A stretch of 64,000 nt of DNA from Plasmodiophora brassicae (taxonomy: Eukaryota). The translations under genes and the position numbers were made by a program. Under the pieces are notes generated by a model. The model did no database searches, was not told the DNA's origin, and saw only the letters and a program-made list of their open reading frames with translations. Positions 19,546-29,509 of this stretch are shown piece after piece; the first letter of the stretch is position 1; the number at the start of each line of letters is the position of its first letter. The stretch covers positions 1,240,001 to 1,304,000 of the forward strand of contig CP145410.1 in NCBI GenBank assembly GCA_036867785.1, written 5' to 3'.

Positions 19546-22500
19546 TTAAAACAGTTCGAGAACAGCTTCCTCGTCGGCGTCTTCTCGCTCGTCTATCGTA
19601 TCCAGCGGCAGCTCCTTCTCGGCGTCCCGGATGGATTCCTGAAGCGGAGCGAGGAAGGGGACGCGCCATTTAGCCGAATCATCGAGAACGCCTTCGAATA
19701 CATCGGGCAGACGGACAGATTCAGTGGCAAGCCGCCCCAGGTACGCGTCGAACTCGGACTGGATCGCTCGCGCTTCCTCATATCGCTGGAACGTGAGCAA
19801 CGCTTGAAGCAGAGCAGCAACCTGGCCATAACGCGGAGCGAGCAATCGCAACTGTTTCACCAGGAACGCTGGTTCCCGCGGATCGCCTTCCTTCATCTTC
19901 CTTGCCTTGCGACGCTGCTTGGCTGCTGGAGCAGAACCCTGCTTCAGACGCCGCGTGACACTCGAGATGTTGGACCACGGCTTGCTCGCCCAGCTGTCCA
20001 CCGACGAGCACTGCGACGTCAACGTGAACGCAGACAGGTTTGACATTTCGCTCTGTGGCCGCTCATCGAACGCTTCATCGTCGTCGTCTTCGACCCGGTC
20101 CACAGCGGTCTCACGGATGGCGACGAGCCGATTGGCACAGTACTTCAGGCGTTGCGTGTTGCTGGCAAGCTCAGCATGCAGATCGCGAGCGCATCGATCC
20201 ACAGCAGGGCCAACAACTCGTCCGACCAGATCAGCGCGGTTGCGACCTCGTGCGATCAGGATGGCATCCGCCCACAATTCAGCTCGAACGAGAACGGAAA
20301 CGGCGTTGCCCACATCTTGGCAGTACTCAGCGTAGAGATGGCAAGCATTACGAGCAGCAACTTCATCCACGGGTCCAGTCGTCATAGTCACCGCCAGGTC
20401 ACGTGCGAGTCGCGACGTGTCCACGCCAACTCGAAATGCAACTGTCATTGCTTCGCGCCACTGGCCAGCTTCACGATAGGCTTCCATGGCACGATTGTCG
20501 TCACCCGCCGCCTCCCAGGCGGCACCACTTCGGGAGTACTCGGCGTAGGCTGTCAGGAGTGCTGGGTGTTGTGAAGGGAACAGACGGAACGCAACAGGGA
20601 ACAACTCTTCCGGATGGGATTTGATGAGCTCAATGCACAGGTCAACCGATATTGGAGACGCTGTCGCAAGGTGTTCCAGTGCTCTCGCGTGCCGGCCAAG
20701 GCGTAGATCAATGTTATAACGCTGCATATGGGTTGGCATGGCACGAAGGTCGTCGAGAAGGGCGCCATACTCACGAGGGTCTCGTTGGGAAGCGCGACCA
20801 ACCATTTCAACCAGCGCGAAGTCGTAGGTCCCTAAGGCCGCGCTGAAGAGATCCTCGGCACTGGAGATTGTGATAGCGAAACGCATGGCAGTCATCTGGG
20901 CCATTGTACCCAGTGACCCAACCAGACGTAGAGCTTCCTCAAGACGCGGCGGCTGCTGCCGAATCAGGGCACACATATGTGGCTGGACAAGGCGGACGGC
21001 ATCGGGCCGCTTGGCGATAGCTTTGGCAATCAGGTCGCATATGAAGTTGACCTTGCCCGCGCTTCGAGGCGCAGCGACGGATTGCTCGGGAGCGTTGGGA
21101 GTGCCCTGGCCAGGGACCTCCACAGCCAGACTTGCAAGGCCAGCGTGATCGACATCATCGTCGTCAACCACTTGACAAGCCTTAAAGCTCGTGTACACTG
21201 TATCCCGGGTGTTGGTGTCGGACACGCTTCCCAAGAATTCGGTAATGTACAACGGCTCGTTAACGTCGTTGACGAACGCCTCCGGATCGAACGCAACTGG
21301 GTCGGCGTCATAAATGAGATTTAGATCGACACGATGTCGCCTCATTTTCAGCAGGGCCGATCGCCAATCACGCTTGCCGAGCAATTTCCCGACGGTTTGC
21401 ATCAAAAGCGGGATCGGGTGAATGACCTCCAGATTGCCTCGCGGCATCTGCAGGACGACCTTATCGTCGGGCACGTCAGCCACCAGCAAAGCACCGCGCT
21501 CGATAGGACGTTGGGAGACTTCTATGCAAGGACTCGCCAAAAGATCCACAATGTGAAGCACGTTCTGGAGGCCTGATGTTGTAAACAGAAGCCTGGAGCC
21601 GTCATCGGTGACGACCGTCGAGGTGCACTGTTGGGAGATAAGCTCGCCGCTGACAAACAGACGTGACCGACGTGGATCGAATCCTATCAGAAGACGGCGC
21701 CCGCTAATGGAAAATGTTTGGCATGCGGTCGGGAACGCCCCGATGCGTTCATCAGACAGCAGTCGGAAGACGGACCCATCGCTGGATTGGATGGCACCGT
21801 CACGAACGCAAACCACTGGAGACGACGGGACAGAGCAACCGGAAACGTTCCCACATGGGTCCACTATGAGAAGGCCATCATCACCGTCCTCGATAGCTTC
21901 GACGGCAACAAGTCGTCCATCAGCCATCCACGATAAATGTCGCAATCGACGTGGTCCTCCAAGATCGACAGTTCGCGATGGCGACAGCGTGCTGCCCATC
22001 TCGAGTTGGTCGATTGCATCGAAAACAGAAAGGGTCGATCCATCGCACAGAACGCATGCCAATGACGACTCGGACAAAGCAATCGCGCTGATCACGTCCT
22101 GGCACTGTGCACGTGCATATGCCAGAGGCGGTGGCATGGTGCACTTTTGTAACGGATACAGGAGCACGTGGCTGCCATCGATAACGCCGGCAACAGAGCC
22201 GGCGACTGTGACGTCGTTATGAAACGTGACAGTAGTCAAGCCGGATGAGGTGACAAAGACTAGGCGCATGGCATCCTCGGGATCCCATTGGGCGCCGACA
22301 ATAGGCGTTGCCGTCGACAGACGTATCTTGCAGTACCAGTGATAGTTGGACCGGCGCATGACGTCGATGTACGAGCTCGTCACAATAGCAAACAGCGAAG
22401 AATCGACGTTCCAGTCCAGCGACACGAGCGTGCACCCTTCTGGGATGTCGATATCGAACTGACCATGTCGAAGAGCATTCGCTCCTTCAAATAGGCACAT

Positions 22501-23181
22501 CATAGTCTTTGCGCCTGATGAACCTGCATCGTGGAGAACAGGGGCGATGGCAAAATCGCCATTTGGTCGGAAAGAAATTGGCCCAAGTAGCGCATCATGC
22601 GCTTCTCTGTCGCTTCTGGCAATTGCATGACCGTTTCGGTCGTACAGGACAACAAGATTGTGCTTTGTGTCAACAGCAATGAAGGATGTACCGTCTGATC
22701 GCCAGCTCAGGTCGCTCATGACATCGTCTACCGCGATCTCGTGGAGCACATCCCATTGTTGCGTCAGTATCAGCATGGAGGACACCGATCGTCCGCAAAT
22801 GGTTAAGAGCTCATGTCCAGGTGACCAGCGTGCGACTGAAACCCCGCCTGCGATCTGGCCAACGACCTCGACAGCACCTTGATCGCCACCATGAACGTTC
22901 ACAGTAACAATGTCACCGTTATCGGCAACAATGCAGATGGATTCCAGATCTGGAATATAATCCATCGCAACGATGTCCGCCACACCTGCACCGAACGTGC
23001 CCTCCGGGATCGGAAAGCGTCCATATTCACAAACGCCATCGACCAGCGGATATCGCACAAGTGCCGAAACGTCTCGCAATAGCAGAAACGCAGACGACGA
23101 CGGCGAGTCGATGGAGAACACGCCGAAACACTGCTCGCGTAATGAGCGTACGCGCTCAGTCGTCACCTGCACGTTCCGCAT
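19546..23181 (-). CDS. ELP1: Elongator complex subunit 1 (intronless)
   Basis: MRNV start, WSPGHELL, WRSDG, SNYHWYCK, RPIERGALLV, VLQMPRGNLEVIHP, MRRHRVDLNLIYD, ALGTYDF..SQRDPREY, basic RRKARK tail. Confidence 0.95.
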   Translation of the reverse strand: MRNVQVTTERVRSLREQCFGVFSIDSPSSSAFLLLRDVSALVRYPLVDGVCEYGRFPIPEGTFGAGVADIVAMDYIPDLESICIVADNGDIVTVNVHGGDQGAVEVVGQIAGGVSVARWSPGHELLTICGRSVSSMLILTQQWDVLHEIAVDDVMSDLSWRSDGTSFIAVDTKHNLVVLYDRNGHAIARSDREAHDALLGPISFRPNGDFAIAPVLHDAGSSGAKTMMCLFEGANALRHGQFDIDIPEGCTLVSLDWNVDSSLFAIVTSSYIDVMRRSNYHWYCKIRLSTATPIVGAQWDPEDAMRLVFVTSSGLTTVTFHNDVTVAGSVAGVIDGSHVLLYPLQKCTMPPPLAYARAQCQDVISAIALSESSLACVLCDGSTLSVFDAIDQLEMGSTLSPSRTVDLGGPRRLRHLSWMADGRLVAVEAIEDGDDGLLIVDPCGNVSGCSVPSSPVVCVRDGAIQSSDGSVFRLLSDERIGAFPTACQTFSISGRRLLIGFDPRRSRLFVSGELISQQCTSTVVTDDGSRLLFTTSGLQNVLHIVDLLASPCIEVSQRPIERGALLVADVPDDKVVLQMPRGNLEVIHPIPLLMQTVGKLLGKRDWRSALLKMRRHRVDLNLIYDADPVAFDPEAFVNDVNEPLYITEFLGSVSDTNTRDTVYTSFKACQVVDDDDVDHAGLASLAVEVPGQGTPNAPEQSVAAPRSAGKVNFICDLIAKAIAKRPDAVRLVQPHMCALIRQQPPRLEEALRLVGSLGTMAQMTAMRFAITISSAEDLFSAALGTYDFALVEMVGRASQRDPREYGALLDDLRAMPTHMQRYNIDLRLGRHARALEHLATASPISVDLCIELIKSHPEELFPVAFRLFPSQHPALLTAYAEYSRSGAAWEAAGDDNRAMEAYREAGQWREAMTVAFRVGVDTSRLARDLAVTMTTGPVDEVAARNACHLYAEYCQDVGNAVSVLVRAELWADAILIARGRNRADLVGRVVGPAVDRCARDLHAELASNTQRLKYCANRLVAIRETAVDRVEDDDDEAFDERPQSEMSNLSAFTLTSQCSSVDSWASKPWSNISSVTRRLKQGSAPAAKQRRKARKMKEGDPREPAFLVKQLRLLAPRYGQVAALLQALLTFQRYEEARAIQSEFDAYLGRLATESVRLPDVFEGVLDDSAKWRVPFLAPLQESIRDAEKELPLDTIDEREDADEEAVLELF

Positions 23182-23573
23182 TGCACCAGCAGCAGTGCCA
23201 CGGAGTCCGTCGCGGAGTTCACAGACAGCACGTACTGCAATGTCTGCGTCTTTGACTAGTGCCTGAAGTTCCATTATGTTCTATACACACTAATTATTAT
23301 GTGTGAGAATAAATAGTGTGTATCACAGTATTCATGCCAGCACCTATATAGTGTTAATTCGCATTTAGTGTTATACACACTACCGGTTGGGCCTCTAAAA
23401 CCGCTAACACCTAATTAGTTTGAAACAGACTAATCAGACTAATTGCGGTAATCTAGGCCACGAGATCTCGTGGCGTAGTTGGGCGGTCCGGTCTACACTA
23501 TAGAGGGCAGACACGACTATGAGCTGTCCTACTCTGTTTATACGCAGTCATGTCATGAGGAAACGCAACACAG

Positions 23574-24374
23574 CTACGACATCAGAAAATCCATCAGAGC
23601 GGCCCGACGAGAACTAAGGTCACCGGCGCCTACATACTCGACATTAGGTGCTGGATAATCCAAAGTCAGAAAACAATGGTTACCGAAATTGATGTTGAAA
23701 AACCACTCTAAACGCGCGAGATGCGCGCCTTGCATGGTATTCAGTGCCGACGAATTCAGGCCAGCTTGCGGGAAGAACGGCACATCAGGAAGTGGCGCCC
23801 CGACAGGGAATTCGGCAGCGCCGGCAGGGATTGCATCAGAGAATGCTGCGGGTACTTGACCGGCCGGATGGCCAGGCCTCTCCTTGAGCACTGGAAGCAG
23901 CGACATGTTCAGTCCCGCCAGGCTTGCGTTGCGGGCCCTGATTCGCGTGTTGTGAACCATGGCGGAGATGCTGTCCAGCCTGGCGGAGATGCCGTCCAGC
24001 CTGGCGGTGACGGGCGCCAGCGATGCCGCCATGGCAGGCGCAAACCAGGCAGGAGCGTCAGCAGCTGGATAGACTTCCGCGGAAGGTTGACTCAGGATCG
24101 CATGCTCCCGAACCTGGCCACCGGCGACCTCGTCGGCGGTGATCAGGCCGGGGTGTGCCAGTCGAAGGCGCTTGCGCGCATCCACTTCCGCCGCCGCGTC
24201 TAGGACGTCCTGGGCGGCCATGGGAGCGCCCGCGGCGACTCCAGCGGCAGACGAGCCGGCAACGACCGCCTGTCCTGCCGCCTGCGACAGCCGGGACGGC
24301 AACCGAGTATCATCACGCCAAAAGGGGGTCCCTACGGTCCGCCGCAGCGCTGCGGTCGTCAGTCTGATCGCCAT
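23574..24374 (-). CDS. Mug135/DUF1773-like protein with heptad repeats; N-terminus rearranged
   Basis: APAWFAPAMAASLAP, heptads ARLDGIS-ARLDSIS, ARN..LLPVLKE, FFP..LARLEWFFNINF. Likely 54-bp intron 23630-23683 gives FGAGDLSSRRAALMDFL. Family recalled. Confidence 0.6.
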   Translation of the reverse strand: MAIRLTTAALRRTVGTPFWRDDTRLPSRLSQAAGQAVVAGSSAAGVAAGAPMAAQDVLDAAAEVDARKRLRLAHPGLITADEVAGGQVREHAILSQPSAEVYPAADAPAWFAPAMAASLAPVTARLDGISARLDSISAMVHNTRIRARNASLAGLNMSLLPVLKERPGHPAGQVPAAFSDAIPAGAAEFPVGAPLPDVPFFPQAGLNSSALNTMQGAHLARLEWFFNINFGNHCFLTLDYPAPNVEYVGAGDLSSRRAALMDFLMS

Positions 24375-24718
24375 GAACTACTCGGTTGCCGTCCCGGCTG
24401 TCGCACCGCTGTCGCAGGCGGCAGGACAGGCGGTCGTTGCCGGCTCGTCTGCCGCTGGAGTCGCCGCGGGCGCTCCCATGGCCGCCCAGGACGTCCTAGA
24501 CGCGGCGGCGGAAGTGGATGCGCGCAAGCGCCTTCGACTGGCACACCCCGGCCTGATCACCGCCGACGAGGTCGCCGGTGGCCAGGTTCGGGAGCATGCG
24601 ATCCTGAGTCAACATTCCGCGGAAGTCTATCCAGCTGCTGACGCTCCTGCCTGGTTTGCGCCTGCCATGGCGGCATCGCTGGCGCCCGTCACCGCCAGGC
24701 TGGACGGCATCTCCGCCA
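23981..24718. repeat. Inverted repeat: arms 23981-24309 and 24379-24718, 69-bp spacer
   Basis: Arms are reverse complements. Differences seen by eye are one substitution (24614) and an 11-bp insertion (CCGCTGTCGCA) in the right arm. Confidence 0.95.
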
Positions 24719-24750
24719 CCCCCTTTTGGCGTGATAAACCTTGCTGGTAA
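24373..24750 (+). pseudogene. Truncated inverted copy of the Mug135-like gene (125 aa ORF)
   Basis: MNYSVAVPAVAPLSQAAGQ...ARLDGISA matches the minus-strand gene from LSQAAGQ onward (one P/H change), then TPFWRDKPCW*. The C-terminal domain is missing. Confidence 0.7.
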
Positions 24751-25804
24751 CAACGGGACGACCTCGACGTCAGCAGTTTCGGATGTCCGGTGTTTAGTGG
24801 AATGAATCAATGTGTCGTGCTGGGGTGTCAGGTGATGGGGCGCTGGAATGTTCTGCAGTCGCGCGGTCTGGGCAACCAGACCCTGAGAGCTATGAGTGCC
24901 GGAATGTTCCGTGGTGCTGCTGATGGAATGTTCTGCGGTGTTGGCTGCTGGGTCGTAACGTCATCATCAGCGACAAAATTCCAACTGCTGTCGGCCCGCC
25001 CGGCATCTCGACGGGCGCTTGCTGATGACCGCCATCGTGTCGGCAGAGTGCTAGCTAGTGGCCTGCCATGGGCAGGATGCTGCCGCCCGTGCATTACGGT
25101 TCGTGGGGTGGGCGACGCTCATCAGGTTCACTTGATTTACAAGAGGCGCCAGAACACGTGGACAGATAGGGAGACCCTGCGGGTCGATCGCCATTCAACG
25201 AGTGAGTATGTCCGGCGTCTTGCGCGTCCTGACTCACTTCTTGATGACGTTCAGCTGGCTCGTCTTGAAGCAATCGGATTGACTGATCAGCCCCGCGTTC
25301 ACGACTGAACCTCCATCGACTGCTGCTGAACAGGGCTAATGCCCAGAGCTGCCAACAGATCGGAGCCGATGAGAGTGACTGTGACTGTGTCCGTGATCCA
25401 AGTGTTTCTTCCGAGTGATGCAAATATTTGTTTCCACCGTAAGTACCATGAATACCCATTTCGATACTTCTTCACTGTGGTGATGGTCACCGCCCGGACG
25501 GAGAAGCATCCTCCGTATTCAGTTTCGCTTCCAATAGGCAAACAGATATCAGTTGTATGACCACCGATACGTCCTAAGGAATGTGAGCCGCACACTTGGC
25601 AGAGCTCAGTTTACTGCTAATGCTTTTCGCTATCGGAATTCATATATGCATGGCAACCATGGTTCATACATTCGCTTGAGCGTGAAGGAGAGTCGCTACG
25701 TTCCGCGTTGCGGAATGGGGAATGTGGCCCTTGCGAGTTGCGGTACGCACGCGGACTTCCTGCGGCTGGCATTGGCAGCCTGAGGCGCCTACGAGGAGTC
25801 GACA

Positions 25805-28800
25805 ATGGCCGGGGCGGATGGCGACCGCTCCCGATTGCGACCACTGTCGTCGGACGATGAGGACGTCGAGTCGGCGCGCGTGACGCCGGATTCTTGCGTG
25901 GACCTGCTCGTGGAATGGATTCACAAGGTGGGCGCTGGACGGGTTCAGCTCGAACGCCTGTCCGAATTCTTTGCCGAACAGCCGGACAGTGTTCGGACCC
26001 TCGTCCGTCCGACCGTCAAGCGGTTCCTGCAGCGTCACGCTGATGGCGCCGTACGGTTAGAGGTCGAGCCCGGTCCACCTCGCTGCCAATACCTTGTCGC
26101 TGTCGAGGAAACCGACGACATCTGTGTCTTCGCACCTATGCTTGGCGACCTCGTTCGTGGACAAAAGGACCGCCTTCCTGTCAAGTACGTGCCCAAAGTT
26201 CTCGTCGAGCGTATCACCAAGCACGCCCCCTCCATTGAGGAATTCGTTGACAGGCACGGGCTCTTTTTCGATTTGACGATGGGTGATGACGAAGACGGTC
26301 GCGTCGTATGCAATATCGCCAAGAGCGACACCGCTGTTGTGCAACATGATGACGTAATTCCAGAAGTTGTCACAACTCTCGCTCGTGCGGAATCTCTCGT
26401 CCAGGTCGAGCTCGTCGACCTGAAGTGCGTTGCGCTTGCAATCCGTCCCGGCCTTCTGTGTATGGCTGCCCCACCTTCCACTGTCCTGCTCTTCGACACG
26501 CAGACCTGTCCCGCTCTTGTTCACGATTCTGGACTGTCCAAGCTTCTGTCCAGTTCGGCGGTCACGACCATTGTTCACGACTCGGCTTCGTTAGCGTCGA
26601 TATTCGGTACAGACATTCCCCGGGTGTTTGACGTTCAGGTCGCTCATCAGCTTCTGACGTCGACGACGGATCCGGCGCCACTTGAGCTCGTGCTGAAAAC
26701 CTACTCATCCTTCGTGGTTTCCTCAGGCTGTGATTCATTGTCTGCTGAAACCTGGGACGAACGTCCCGTTGCCAGCGCGGTCATCCAGCATGCCCAACAG
26801 CGAGTGGAATATCTGATCGACTCGTTTGCAGAACTTTCGGATCGTCTGGATCCATCCGTAATTGAGGCTGTGTACAGTCGAGCGTCGGCGACCGGTCGTC
26901 AGGTTCCTACAGAAACCCCACCTGCAGAGGAACCGCCAGCCCAGCCAAACACCGAGCCCCAAGCGCCTCTGCCAAGCGAGTTGCCCTCTGCGGCACCATT
27001 ACCGTCAAACCTTGATGACGCTCTTCGGCAGTTTGGGGACGCCTTTGAATCGGACAAGCATGGGATCTCAGTCAGCGGTTCGATCGCGCCGCTGCAAGCG
27101 CCAGTGCTTACTGGTGTGACCTGCTCTGTCAACTTGACGATCACTGGCTCTAGCGAGTTCTCGATGGTGACCTGCACACTTCTTCAGTCGTCCTGGCAGG
27201 ACCCTCCTCCGTTTTCCGTGACCCCTGCGCTGAAACGCGATTCGCATCAGGCCCCTGTTGGGCCGTCAGTAGACGTCGTGGTCTCGTTTCGTTCGTCACT
27301 TCCGGGCTGCTACCGTGCGGCGTTGCTGATGGAGTTTCAATCCGTATCGGAAGGTGACGGGGAATCTGAACACAGCCCTGGCCGTATCGTGATTGGGCGC
27401 ATGTTTGACAACGTCAACTGTGTCGAGCCGCACCGCGCTTCATCGATTGCAGAACTGGGGCCTCAGAAGCCGTTCCAACCGCGAAAGCGGTTTACCCGAT
27501 TCGGCCGCGTCGAGCGGGACACGTTCGATCGGGACGCGATTGGAAGCCCGCCACCCATGAAGACCGCATCGTCGCTGGCCCCATACAACGTCCCTGCCAA
27601 GTTCAAGCTGCCGGACGACTTCGCCGCCGTCCCCTCCATCGAAGGATACGCTGAGCGGTTCCATCAACTGCTGTTTGCAGAAGAAGTCAAAGTTCGCGCC
27701 GACCAACGCAACTACGACCTGTCGGACGCCCCGCTTATGCCCATTGATGGGTCGAAGGGGCGGTACCGCGTCGCTGTCGCTGGGCTGGCTGAGAAGCGCC
27801 CGTCTGTTCTAGTCCTCGACGATGTGTTCCTTCTGTTCTGCGACCAGACCTATCGTGCGCGAGTGATGGCCGTTGAACAGGATCACATCCAAATTGTAAC
27901 CGGAGAGACGTTCCGGGCCCGGTGCGGGTCGTCTCCTCGCGCCGACATCCGATTCGTTCACAATCGGAAGTCGTTCAAGCTGTCCCATCAAGGCGTCGAC
28001 GCGTTCGATCCTGCGATCCATGGAGATCTCGTGTTCCCGAGTGGTGATGCTCGCATCGACGATAGCAAGTCATCCTCGGATCGTCAAGTGGACGTCGACC
28101 CCAAACTCAACGACGAACAGCGTTCCGCCGTTCAGAATTTAGTCGAATTCGACCAGCGAAGCCGCGTGCCTTACGTCATCTTCGGCCCACCCGGTACGGG
28201 CAAGACCGCTACGCTGGTCGAAGCGCTCCGACACATCGTTCGCGTCCACAGCGACATCCACGTGCTCGTGTGCTGCCCAACGAATGCTGCCGCCGACCTG
28301 CTCGTCGAACGTCTCGCTCCTGTGATGCCACCTTCTTCAATGTTCCGCGTCATGGCTCGTAATCGCAAGCAGGTCGAAACGCCATCTGCTGTGCTGCCGT
28401 TCGCCGGCATCTGCGAAGATGGCGACGGATTCGCCAGCCACTCAATGGAGGACATCACGGCTGACAATGTTCGTGTTGTCGTTGCCACGCTGTCCACCGC
28501 GGGCACCTTCGTTAACCTGGGAGTCCCTCGAGGGTTCTTTAAACTCATTGCTGTTGATGAAGCGGGCCAGGCTACTGAGCCCGAACTGATGAGCGTCGTC
28601 GGCCCGCTTGCAGACAAGCAGACCCGGCTCGTCCTGTCTGGCGATCCTGAACAGCTCGGCCCAATCGTCATGTCGAAGGACGCTGCTGCCAAGGGTCTGG
28701 GCGTGTCGCTTCTGGAACGTCTTGTCCGGCTGCCGGTTTATGGCCCGGGCAGTGCATTCATTCAGCGCCTTGTTCGGAACTACCGCTCCCACCCCGCCCT

Positions 28801-29509
28801 GCTCACCGTGCCGAGCGACTTGTTCTACAATTCGAGTTTGGTGGCCTGCGCCAACAAGGCGGTTTCGTATTCGTTCGCCGACTGGATTCATTTGCCGTCG
28901 CCGGGCACTCCCGTCGTGTTCCATGGAGTGGAAGGCGCCGACATGCGTGAAGGCACGTCGCCGTCCTGGTTCAACCCGCACGAAGTCAACGTCGTCCTCG
29001 ACTACGTCGAGCTCATCCAGTGCTCAATCCCGCTGTCCGAGATCGGAATCATCACGCCATACCTGAAGCAGAAAGCCAAGATTAGTCGTGCTCTGGAGGC
29101 AATGGGCCTACGTGGCGTTCGTGTCGGGTCCGTTGAACAGTTCCAGGGAGCAGAGCTCCGCGCCGTTATCATCTCGACGGTGCGAAGCTCGTCCAAACTT
29201 GTCGGTAACGACCTGAAGTTCAATCTCGGGTTCGTCGCCAATCCCAAGCGGTTCAATGTGGCCATTACACGCGCGCAGGCGCTGCTGGTCGTCATCGGCA
29301 ACCCTCGCGTACTCCAGTCGGACAAGAACTGGGATGCTCTCCTCCAGCATTGCCTTCGGAGCGGCGCGTGCAAAGGCGTCGCTCCGAAACGTCCTGCCAC
29401 CGACGTTGGTGAATCGGATGACTCGGGCAATGACTCCAGCTTGAAACCTGCTGCTGACAAGCTGGAGGGCGAGAACGAAAGGAACCCCTCCGAGGTGCCC
29501 ATTGTCTGA
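25805..29509 (+). CDS. MOV10: MOV10/SDE3/Armitage-like SF1 RNA helicase with N-terminal Egalitarian/EXD1-like module (intronless, 1234 aa)
   Basis: GLAEKRPSV, FGPPGTGKT, VDEAGQ, LSGDPEQLGP, NYRSH, REGTSPSWFN, VGSVEQFQG, RFNVAITRA. N-terminal exonuclease-fold motifs VLLFD, IVHD, VFDVQVA, WDERP. Confidence 0.92.
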   Translation: MAGADGDRSRLRPLSSDDEDVESARVTPDSCVDLLVEWIHKVGAGRVQLERLSEFFAEQPDSVRTLVRPTVKRFLQRHADGAVRLEVEPGPPRCQYLVAVEETDDICVFAPMLGDLVRGQKDRLPVKYVPKVLVERITKHAPSIEEFVDRHGLFFDLTMGDDEDGRVVCNIAKSDTAVVQHDDVIPEVVTTLARAESLVQVELVDLKCVALAIRPGLLCMAAPPSTVLLFDTQTCPALVHDSGLSKLLSSSAVTTIVHDSASLASIFGTDIPRVFDVQVAHQLLTSTTDPAPLELVLKTYSSFVVSSGCDSLSAETWDERPVASAVIQHAQQRVEYLIDSFAELSDRLDPSVIEAVYSRASATGRQVPTETPPAEEPPAQPNTEPQAPLPSELPSAAPLPSNLDDALRQFGDAFESDKHGISVSGSIAPLQAPVLTGVTCSVNLTITGSSEFSMVTCTLLQSSWQDPPPFSVTPALKRDSHQAPVGPSVDVVVSFRSSLPGCYRAALLMEFQSVSEGDGESEHSPGRIVIGRMFDNVNCVEPHRASSIAELGPQKPFQPRKRFTRFGRVERDTFDRDAIGSPPPMKTASSLAPYNVPAKFKLPDDFAAVPSIEGYAERFHQLLFAEEVKVRADQRNYDLSDAPLMPIDGSKGRYRVAVAGLAEKRPSVLVLDDVFLLFCDQTYRARVMAVEQDHIQIVTGETFRARCGSSPRADIRFVHNRKSFKLSHQGVDAFDPAIHGDLVFPSGDARIDDSKSSSDRQVDVDPKLNDEQRSAVQNLVEFDQRSRVPYVIFGPPGTGKTATLVEALRHIVRVHSDIHVLVCCPTNAAADLLVERLAPVMPPSSMFRVMARNRKQVETPSAVLPFAGICEDGDGFASHSMEDITADNVRVVVATLSTAGTFVNLGVPRGFFKLIAVDEAGQATEPELMSVVGPLADKQTRLVLSGDPEQLGPIVMSKDAAAKGLGVSLLERLVRLPVYGPGSAFIQRLVRNYRSHPALLTVPSDLFYNSSLVACANKAVSYSFADWIHLPSPGTPVVFHGVEGADMREGTSPSWFNPHEVNVVLDYVELIQCSIPLSEIGIITPYLKQKAKISRALEAMGLRGVRVGSVEQFQGAELRAVIISTVRSSSKLVGNDLKFNLGFVANPKRFNVAITRAQALLVVIGNPRVLQSDKNWDALLQHCLRSGACKGVAPKRPATDVGESDDSGNDSSLKPAADKLEGENERNPSEVPIV

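Follow-up and report, generated by a model that had tools for sequence, protein, structure and literature searches.

The locus described here lies within a 64-kb window, the whole stretch of DNA from the clubroot parasite Plasmodiophora brassicae that was analysed, and is built around two open frames, G1 and G2, arranged head to head so that forward transcription of each leaves the centre. G1 occupies 23574..24374 on the minus strand and constitutes a 266-aa open frame with a 54-nt intron (23630-23683) bounded by canonical GT..AG sites, which happens to be in frame. The public gene model of G1 is shorter (23574..24032, minus strand, 134 aa) and starts at Met115, inside the left arm of the inverted repeat described below. 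Translated from Met115 with the intron spliced out, G1 corresponds letter for letter to P0122, which carries the NCBI name PBTT_01582 (Plasmodiophora brassicae). The closest relative of G1 is P0001 (PBTT_07334, Plasmodiophora brassicae), the one close relative in a set of 5.8 billion proteins, with 73% protein identity. G2, on the plus strand (24373..24750), is a 125-aa open frame identical to P0198, which the database records as a protein of this very DNA; it keeps the N-terminus of the family (MNYSVAVPAVAPL...) and stops 8 codons past the junction at the outer end of the repeat. These protein identities assign the window to P. brassicae.

The locus is flanked on the left of G1 by ELP1 (Elongator subunit 1; 19546..23274, minus strand, 1242 aa), assigned by Pfam, and on the right of G2 by an SF1 helicase of the MOV10/SDE3 type (25805..29509, plus strand, 1234 aa). 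The helicase displays an Upf1-like SF1 core (AAA_12, 2.7e-43; AAA_11, 4.1e-29) and a MOV-10 beta-barrel (PF21634, 25.6 bits against a cut-off of 23.6). Its top match, P0002, is the 99% identical copy of another isolate; the best named relatives are of the MOV10/SDE3 type, and the best matches after P0002 include fish MOV10-type proteins together with oomycete and algal exonuclease-domain proteins. The MOV10-like neighbour reported in a preliminary description of this DNA, made from the sequence alone, is therefore supported by both Pfam and homologues, and its distance of about 1.1 kb agrees with the 1087 bp measured from the right arm of the repeat to the helicase start codon (25805). The same description linked the repeat to this gene while allowing for coincidence; nothing beyond position connects the two, and we regard a functional link as very improbable. 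Four open frames within 24790-26038 yielded no Pfam family. The N-terminal 3'-5' exonuclease match of the helicase is weak (PF01612, 21.1 bits against a cut-off of 23.6); oomycete and some algal homologues also bear this domain, and an exonuclease-helicase fusion may be common to distant protist lineages.

Structure and origin of the inverted copy

The locus contains a near-perfect palindrome of 738 bases, formed by a left arm (23981..24309, 329 nt, encoding approximately residues 22-131 of G1) and a right arm (24379..24718, 340 nt) with 69 nt between them. A repeat search resolved the arms into two pairs, 23981-24291/24408-24718 (311 nt) and 24283-24309/24379-24405 (27 nt), with identities of 310/311 and 27/27 in a blastn comparison of one arm with the reverse complement of the other. 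The sole mismatch is G at 24085 versus A at 24614. The right arm contains 11 extra nucleotides (24406..24416), missing from the left arm and placed between two 9-nt direct repeats (GCTGTCGCA). When a 2-nt indel is allowed, the arms grow by TCAT/ATGA and the asymmetric centre comprises 59 nt (24314..24372), within which lies a 14-nt perfect palindrome (24342-24355). The arms, the single substitution, the 11-bp indel and the 69-nt spacer of the preliminary description are confirmed by these results, as is the inverted gene duplication, which is however partial and involves the 5' end of G1 only. Across the whole window, two pairs of inverted repeats reach a length of 40 nt or more at a distance of up to 3 kb, both at the palindrome; no DNA or protein look-alike of the arms was found elsewhere in the 64 kb, and a search of 22500-26500 against Rfam returned no match at E<=0.1.

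The arms do not account for the entire copied sequence. An 18-nt block bordering the left arm on its inner side (block B, 24312..24329; ATCACGCCAAAAGGGGGT), which comprises the last 16 nt of the old G1 leader and the 'AT' of the old G1 start codon, is found again in inverted orientation at the outer end of the right arm, as its exact reverse complement (block B', 24718..24735). Read in the sense of G1, the order of elements is upstream sequence, block B (ACCCCCTTTTGGCGTG), ATG, arm and the remaining gene; in the sense of G2 it is a different upstream sequence, ATG, arm, block B and unrelated sequence. Block B therefore precedes the arm in G1 and follows it in G2. A junction alignment places the inferred insert at 24373..24735 on the plus strand (363 bp), as an inverted, circularly permuted copy of a single contiguous 349-bp source segment, 23981-24329. 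The first piece of the insert is the reverse complement of 24313..23981 and the second that of 24328..24312; 'AT' is present at both ends of the insert, and one base is common to the two pieces at the inner junction. Because the copied second piece ends at 24312, where the first begins (24313), the copy, which has the length of the donor plus 2, represents a single contiguous donor in circularly permuted form. Its orientation is inverted, and it lies upstream of the old G1 start codon at a distance of 59 bp. We conclude with high confidence that the locus carries a genuine, very young, local inverted partial duplication of the 5' end of G1.

G1 is probably the parent and G2 the copy. With G1 in place, three new junctions suffice, and the opposite polarity would appear to need more; in addition, the relatives start like G2, such that the copy holds the ancestral state. 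The N-terminus of P0001 and of other relatives reads MNY..(I/V)P..P, and the same is found in G2 (MNYSVAVPAVAPLSQAAGQ), unlike in G1. The 11 nt and 2 nt present in the copy are therefore taken as ancestral and lost in the parent. By this comparison, 2 + 11 bp have disappeared from G1 close to the palindrome's apex, and G2 retains the ancestral start and frame. As a result of the 13-nt loss, the old ATG of G1 (24313-24311) is out of frame. The present long frame starts instead at an ATG made by the insertion junction (24374-24372) and traverses the former leader; the remainder of G1 is intact. The insertion junction itself (24372-24375) reads CATG, a start codon on both strands, and the ATG that it provides is in frame with G1 only thanks to the later 13-nt loss. 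At its outer end (23981), the duplication breaks off within three tandem 21-nt units (23948-24010), which encode heptad-like repeats (ARLDGIS / ARLDSIS) in the long G1 helix.

A single difference separates the arms over 338 aligned bases, and 13 of the 1234 residues of the neighbouring helicase differ from P0002, its counterpart in another isolate. The duplication, or the latest homogenisation of the arms, is thus about as young as variation within the species, and the earlier wording of a very recent or homogenised duplication is a fair one. Presence/absence of the copy among isolates would be expected.

For the permutation of the copy, the case for a circle-type origin is evenly balanced. 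A DNA piece of about 361 bp would have been circularised, or copied over one unit length via template switching, then opened at a different point and re-inserted with 1-2 nt of microhomology. A size of about 361 bp resembles that of 'microDNA'. Two template switches, or a tandem intermediate, could yield a product identical to that of a circle. Permuted duplicates are attributed in PMC7188851 to circularisation, re-opening elsewhere and re-integration. The extrachromosomal circular DNA duplications described there resemble the present case in that a contiguous donor is copied in circularly permuted order; they differ in that they measure 20-130 kb and belong to the human genome, whereas the P. 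brassicae copy has about 361 bp and lies inverted, 59 bp from its donor. Two other mechanisms were considered and rejected. A transposon or MITE is incompatible with arms that are host coding sequence, with nothing similar in the 64 kb, no terminal repeats and no target-site duplication beyond 'AT'. Fold-back priming at the 14-nt palindrome (24342-24355) fails as the sole mechanism, given that the arms do not abut this palindrome and that the 18-nt block is found at the far end of the copy.

Relation of the G1 family to Mug135_C proteins

No Pfam family was detected in G1 or G2, even at E<=10 in the case of G1. An exhaustive phmmer search retrieved 76 cluster representatives at E<=1e-3, 14 of them at E<=1e-10, and G1 was aligned with 45 relatives (46 rows). 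PF08593 (Mug135_C) matches 7 of the 46 rows at E<=0.01, the best at 8.3e-22; at least one of these seven, P0128, reaches 17 bits and stays under the gathering cut-off of 23.8. The family contains two C-terminal types, long and short. For profile comparison, the alignment was cut after a conserved N..R..N motif, 8 of the 46 rows having been dropped beforehand as truncated or aberrant. Alignment with hhalign of the 23 long-type C-termini (G1 included) to the 7 PF08593-positive rows gave a probability of 93.4% (E 2.6e-7, 49 columns), and alignment to all 15 short-type rows gave 95.6% (E 1.2e-8). In the protein Atlas, the relative P0125 is nearest to clusters of the 'Mug135-like C-terminal domain', with a score of 0.94.

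The full-length structural model (pLDDT 85) consists of separate N-terminal helices, a long helix and a C-terminal domain. The first of its 99 PDB matches is 9ja5_A, from the Tdk1-Bdf1 complex, in a weak superposition (E 3.8, probability 0.33, TM 0.43, 156 columns). Tdk1 is not among the 8 PDB matches obtained at E<=10 with a spliced model of the C-terminal domain (pLDDT 95.7), and a profile search of PDB sequences revealed no Tdk1 chain at E<=1 and no meaningful match. On the basis of the relatives and profiles, the family is seen to share its N-terminal region and C-terminal domain with Mug135_C/DUF1773 proteins, in what appears to be a remote link. The label 'Mug135-like' of the preliminary description is adequate in this sense of a remote family relation; it does not hold as membership at the level of Pfam, where G1 and G2 have no match.

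The founding member of this group, S. pombe mug135, now bears the name tdk1 and is described as a single-gene killer meiotic driver, and DUF1773 proteins are reported mainly from Ascomycota and Basidiomycota (PMC11551393). The G1 family resembles the Tdk1/Mug135 proteins of that account in being joined to PF08593-bearing proteins by sequence profiles, and differs from them in that G1 has no Pfam match and its structural similarity to Tdk1 falls short of significance. Tdk1 is a killer driver; the P. brassicae proteins are not known to drive. The family tied to Mug135_C/DUF1773 (P0001, P0122-P0197) is present in a rhizarian, and the Atlas neighbours of a G1-family relative are fungal clusters. 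An ancient origin or a transfer between eukaryotes is possible for its occurrence in this lineage.

A candidate hairpin RNA and its alternatives

When folded as RNA, the segment 23940-24760 forms one long stem with a minimum free energy of -859.7 kcal/mol, compared with -391.6 +/- 9.4 kcal/mol for 20 shuffles of the same segment (z = -50). The stem amounts to about 338 bp of double-stranded RNA, with pairing at 337 of the 338 aligned positions, a bulge of 11 nt and a loop of 59-69 nt. This bears out the earlier proposal that a transcript crossing both arms would fold into dsRNA. Because the two copies stand head to head, a hairpin RNA requires a transcript that enters from outside. Overlapping UTRs have been reported in the compact P. 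brassicae genome (PMC4815078), which makes border-crossing transcripts or read-through plausible.

The small-RNA system of this organism was described in a 2026 study (PMC13547706). According to that account, 90.3% of the P. brassicae small RNAs are 21 nt long and phased, the species has two AGOs, no Dicer and no RdRP, and a Drosha-like RNase III, PbDRL, cuts long dsRNA; the source of the dsRNA/siRNA precursors is stated by its authors as unknown. A palindromic region yielding small RNAs is presented in its Fig. 2G, and its Tables S6 and S8 contain hairpin precursors spanning up to about 990 nt. Many PHAS loci in these tables form adjacent pairs tens of nt apart, and some of the pairs fall within a single precursor, for example PHAS21-131/132 in Pb-miR196 and PHAS21-245/246 in Pb-miR038. 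Dozens of PHAS21 loci in Table S6 occur as neighbour pairs of similar length, about 10-200 nt apart, such as two loci of 385 nt each separated by 131 nt and two of 259 nt each separated by 154 nt. The neighbouring pairs in this table may represent the two arms of long hairpins or inverted duplications.

At the palindrome, leftward transcripts would originate within 1.07 kb of sequence that the locus shares with the MOV10-like gene, at the displaced promoter of G1. Such transcripts would carry the antisense right arm followed by the sense left arm and fold into the stem of about 338 bp, which the Drosha-like RNase III would cut into phased 21-nt siRNAs. These would load into the two Argonautes, and the net effect would be self-silencing of G1, a gene already losing its 5' end. 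Production of siRNAs from the palindrome is plausible, at a probability that we put slightly below even. The public protein models on both arms (P0122 and P0198) count against a hairpin, in that they are compatible with separate ordinary transcripts. Comparison by eye of every row of Table S8 of PMC13547706 revealed none of the listed mature sequences in the arms. The precursor of Pb-miR058 spans 738 nt, the length of the palindrome, but its mature sequence is absent from the window even when 3 mismatches are allowed; the agreement in length is coincidental, and this miRNA was rejected as a candidate.

A separate small-RNA-like site is located outside the palindrome, about 75 nt past the G1 stop codon. 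The 21 nt at 23479-23499 (plus strand) match Pb-miR074a with 2 mismatches and, on the other strand, Pb-miR052a with 3 mismatches, where 0 are expected by chance; the site also matches Pb-miR203 with 2 mismatches (by eye). It is apparently one member of a family of dispersed elements that give rise to small RNAs at several loci. The site has no strong local hairpin (z = -1.6). It adjoins an 18-nt perfect palindrome (GCCACGAGATCTCGTGGC, 23457-23474) in the 300-bp gap between the stop codon of G1 and the start codon of ELP1.

The certain target of siRNAs derived from the arms would be G1 itself, together with any G2 transcript. Other members of the family could be affected only where they share 21-nt identity; between P0001 and G1, the longest identical run in the arm-encoded part is 12 residues. 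The silencing of Mug135-like paralogues in trans that had been proposed is unsupported, with no paralogue in the window and the closest known one, P0001, at 73% protein identity, and we judge it improbable.

The palindrome shares a number of properties with known hairpin loci. In the same organism, the long-hairpin loci of PMC13547706 have precursors of hundreds of nucleotides, give phased 21-nt RNAs, and depend on Drosha-like processing with no need for an RdRP; the published tables use the coordinates of another assembly, and the palindrome is only a candidate member of this class. The features of an hpRNA locus found here are a long near-perfect inverted repeat, a short loop, and arms from a protein-coding gene that is the prospective target. 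Young plant MIRNA genes, as Allen et al. are said to have described in 2004, are likewise born by inverted duplication of the target gene. As in the Drosophila hpRNA loci described in PMC10317233, the arms arise from inverted copying of a protein-coding gene, small RNAs from them would match the gene without a mismatch, and near-identity marks a very young locus. Unlike those hpRNA loci and the young plant MIRNA genes, the P. brassicae copy is positioned head to head with its own parent, directly upstream of it; the hpRNA and MIRNA genes are separate loci with promoters of their own.

The best overall explanation is a young permuted inverted duplication that constitutes a candidate hairpin siRNA locus, a combined reading that we consider to have an even chance of being correct. 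The most serious alternative, appreciably probable though short of an even chance, is that the duplication is real and amounts to a silent scar: no transcript crosses both arms, the leader and start of G1 have been disrupted, and G1 drifts to a pseudogene or to a shortened protein initiated at an internal Met. The loss of the family N-terminus of G1 by a 13-nt net deletion, the public G1 model beginning at Met115, the head-to-head copies and the lack of any listed miRNA in the arms, as compared by eye, are all consistent with such a scar. It is less easily reconciled with the intact remainder of G1 and its canonical intron, with a compact genome in which overlapping UTRs are reported (PMC4815078), or with the phased 21-nt RNAs that long hairpins of P. 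brassicae do give in the loci described in PMC13547706.

A gene fission that created a new small protein is unlikely; in this reading G2 (125 aa) would be the N-terminal half and the G1 model (134 aa) the C-terminal half, with expression of both proteins from the shared centre. Both halves are public predicted proteins, G2 has kept its start codon and frame, and the fold model separates the N-terminal helices, the long helix and the C-terminal domain; but two promoters would scarcely fit into the 59 nt between the start codons, the last 8 codons of G2 derive from the junction, and the public models are predictions rather than expression data. An assembly or sequencing artefact of the fold-back chimera kind is more unlikely still: chimeric long reads or amplification can create small near-perfect palindromes, and the 11-nt indel between the arms could in principle be an assembly error, but unique genes continue on either side of the palindrome, which is internal, one substitution and two indels distinguish the arms, the copy is permuted, unlike a simple fold-back, and the state seen in relatives is in the copy, not in the parent. 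In addition, the proteins encoded by the two arms are recorded on contigs of unequal length (1,933,843 and 1,943,040 bases), a hint that more than one assembly may contain the locus.

Implications for small RNAs in P. brassicae

The permuted junction preserves an unusually clean footprint of the making of a sub-kilobase duplication. The kinship of the family to a fission-yeast killer meiotic driver provides a concrete, if remote, reason why silencing might be selected; the harmfulness of the pathogen is not touched by any of these points. In the boldest form of this idea, which we hold to be very unlikely, the palindrome would be a newborn suppressor that directs hairpin siRNAs against a Tdk1/Mug135-like selfish family in an RdRP-less rhizarian parasite, and that still bears the footprint of a circle. 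If true, the case would be comparable to those of Drosophila simulans and teosinte, in which meiotic drivers are silenced by hairpin loci.

Inverted duplication is a well-known route to hairpin small-RNA loci, and such loci are now described also in P. brassicae (PMC13547706). Inverted duplications provide dsRNA without any RdRP, and P. brassicae is abundant in 21-nt siRNAs yet RdRP-free; structures of this kind are the most likely RdRP-free source of dsRNA in this organism. A copy as young as the one described here, with 1 substitution in 338 nt, would show the start of a small-RNA locus.
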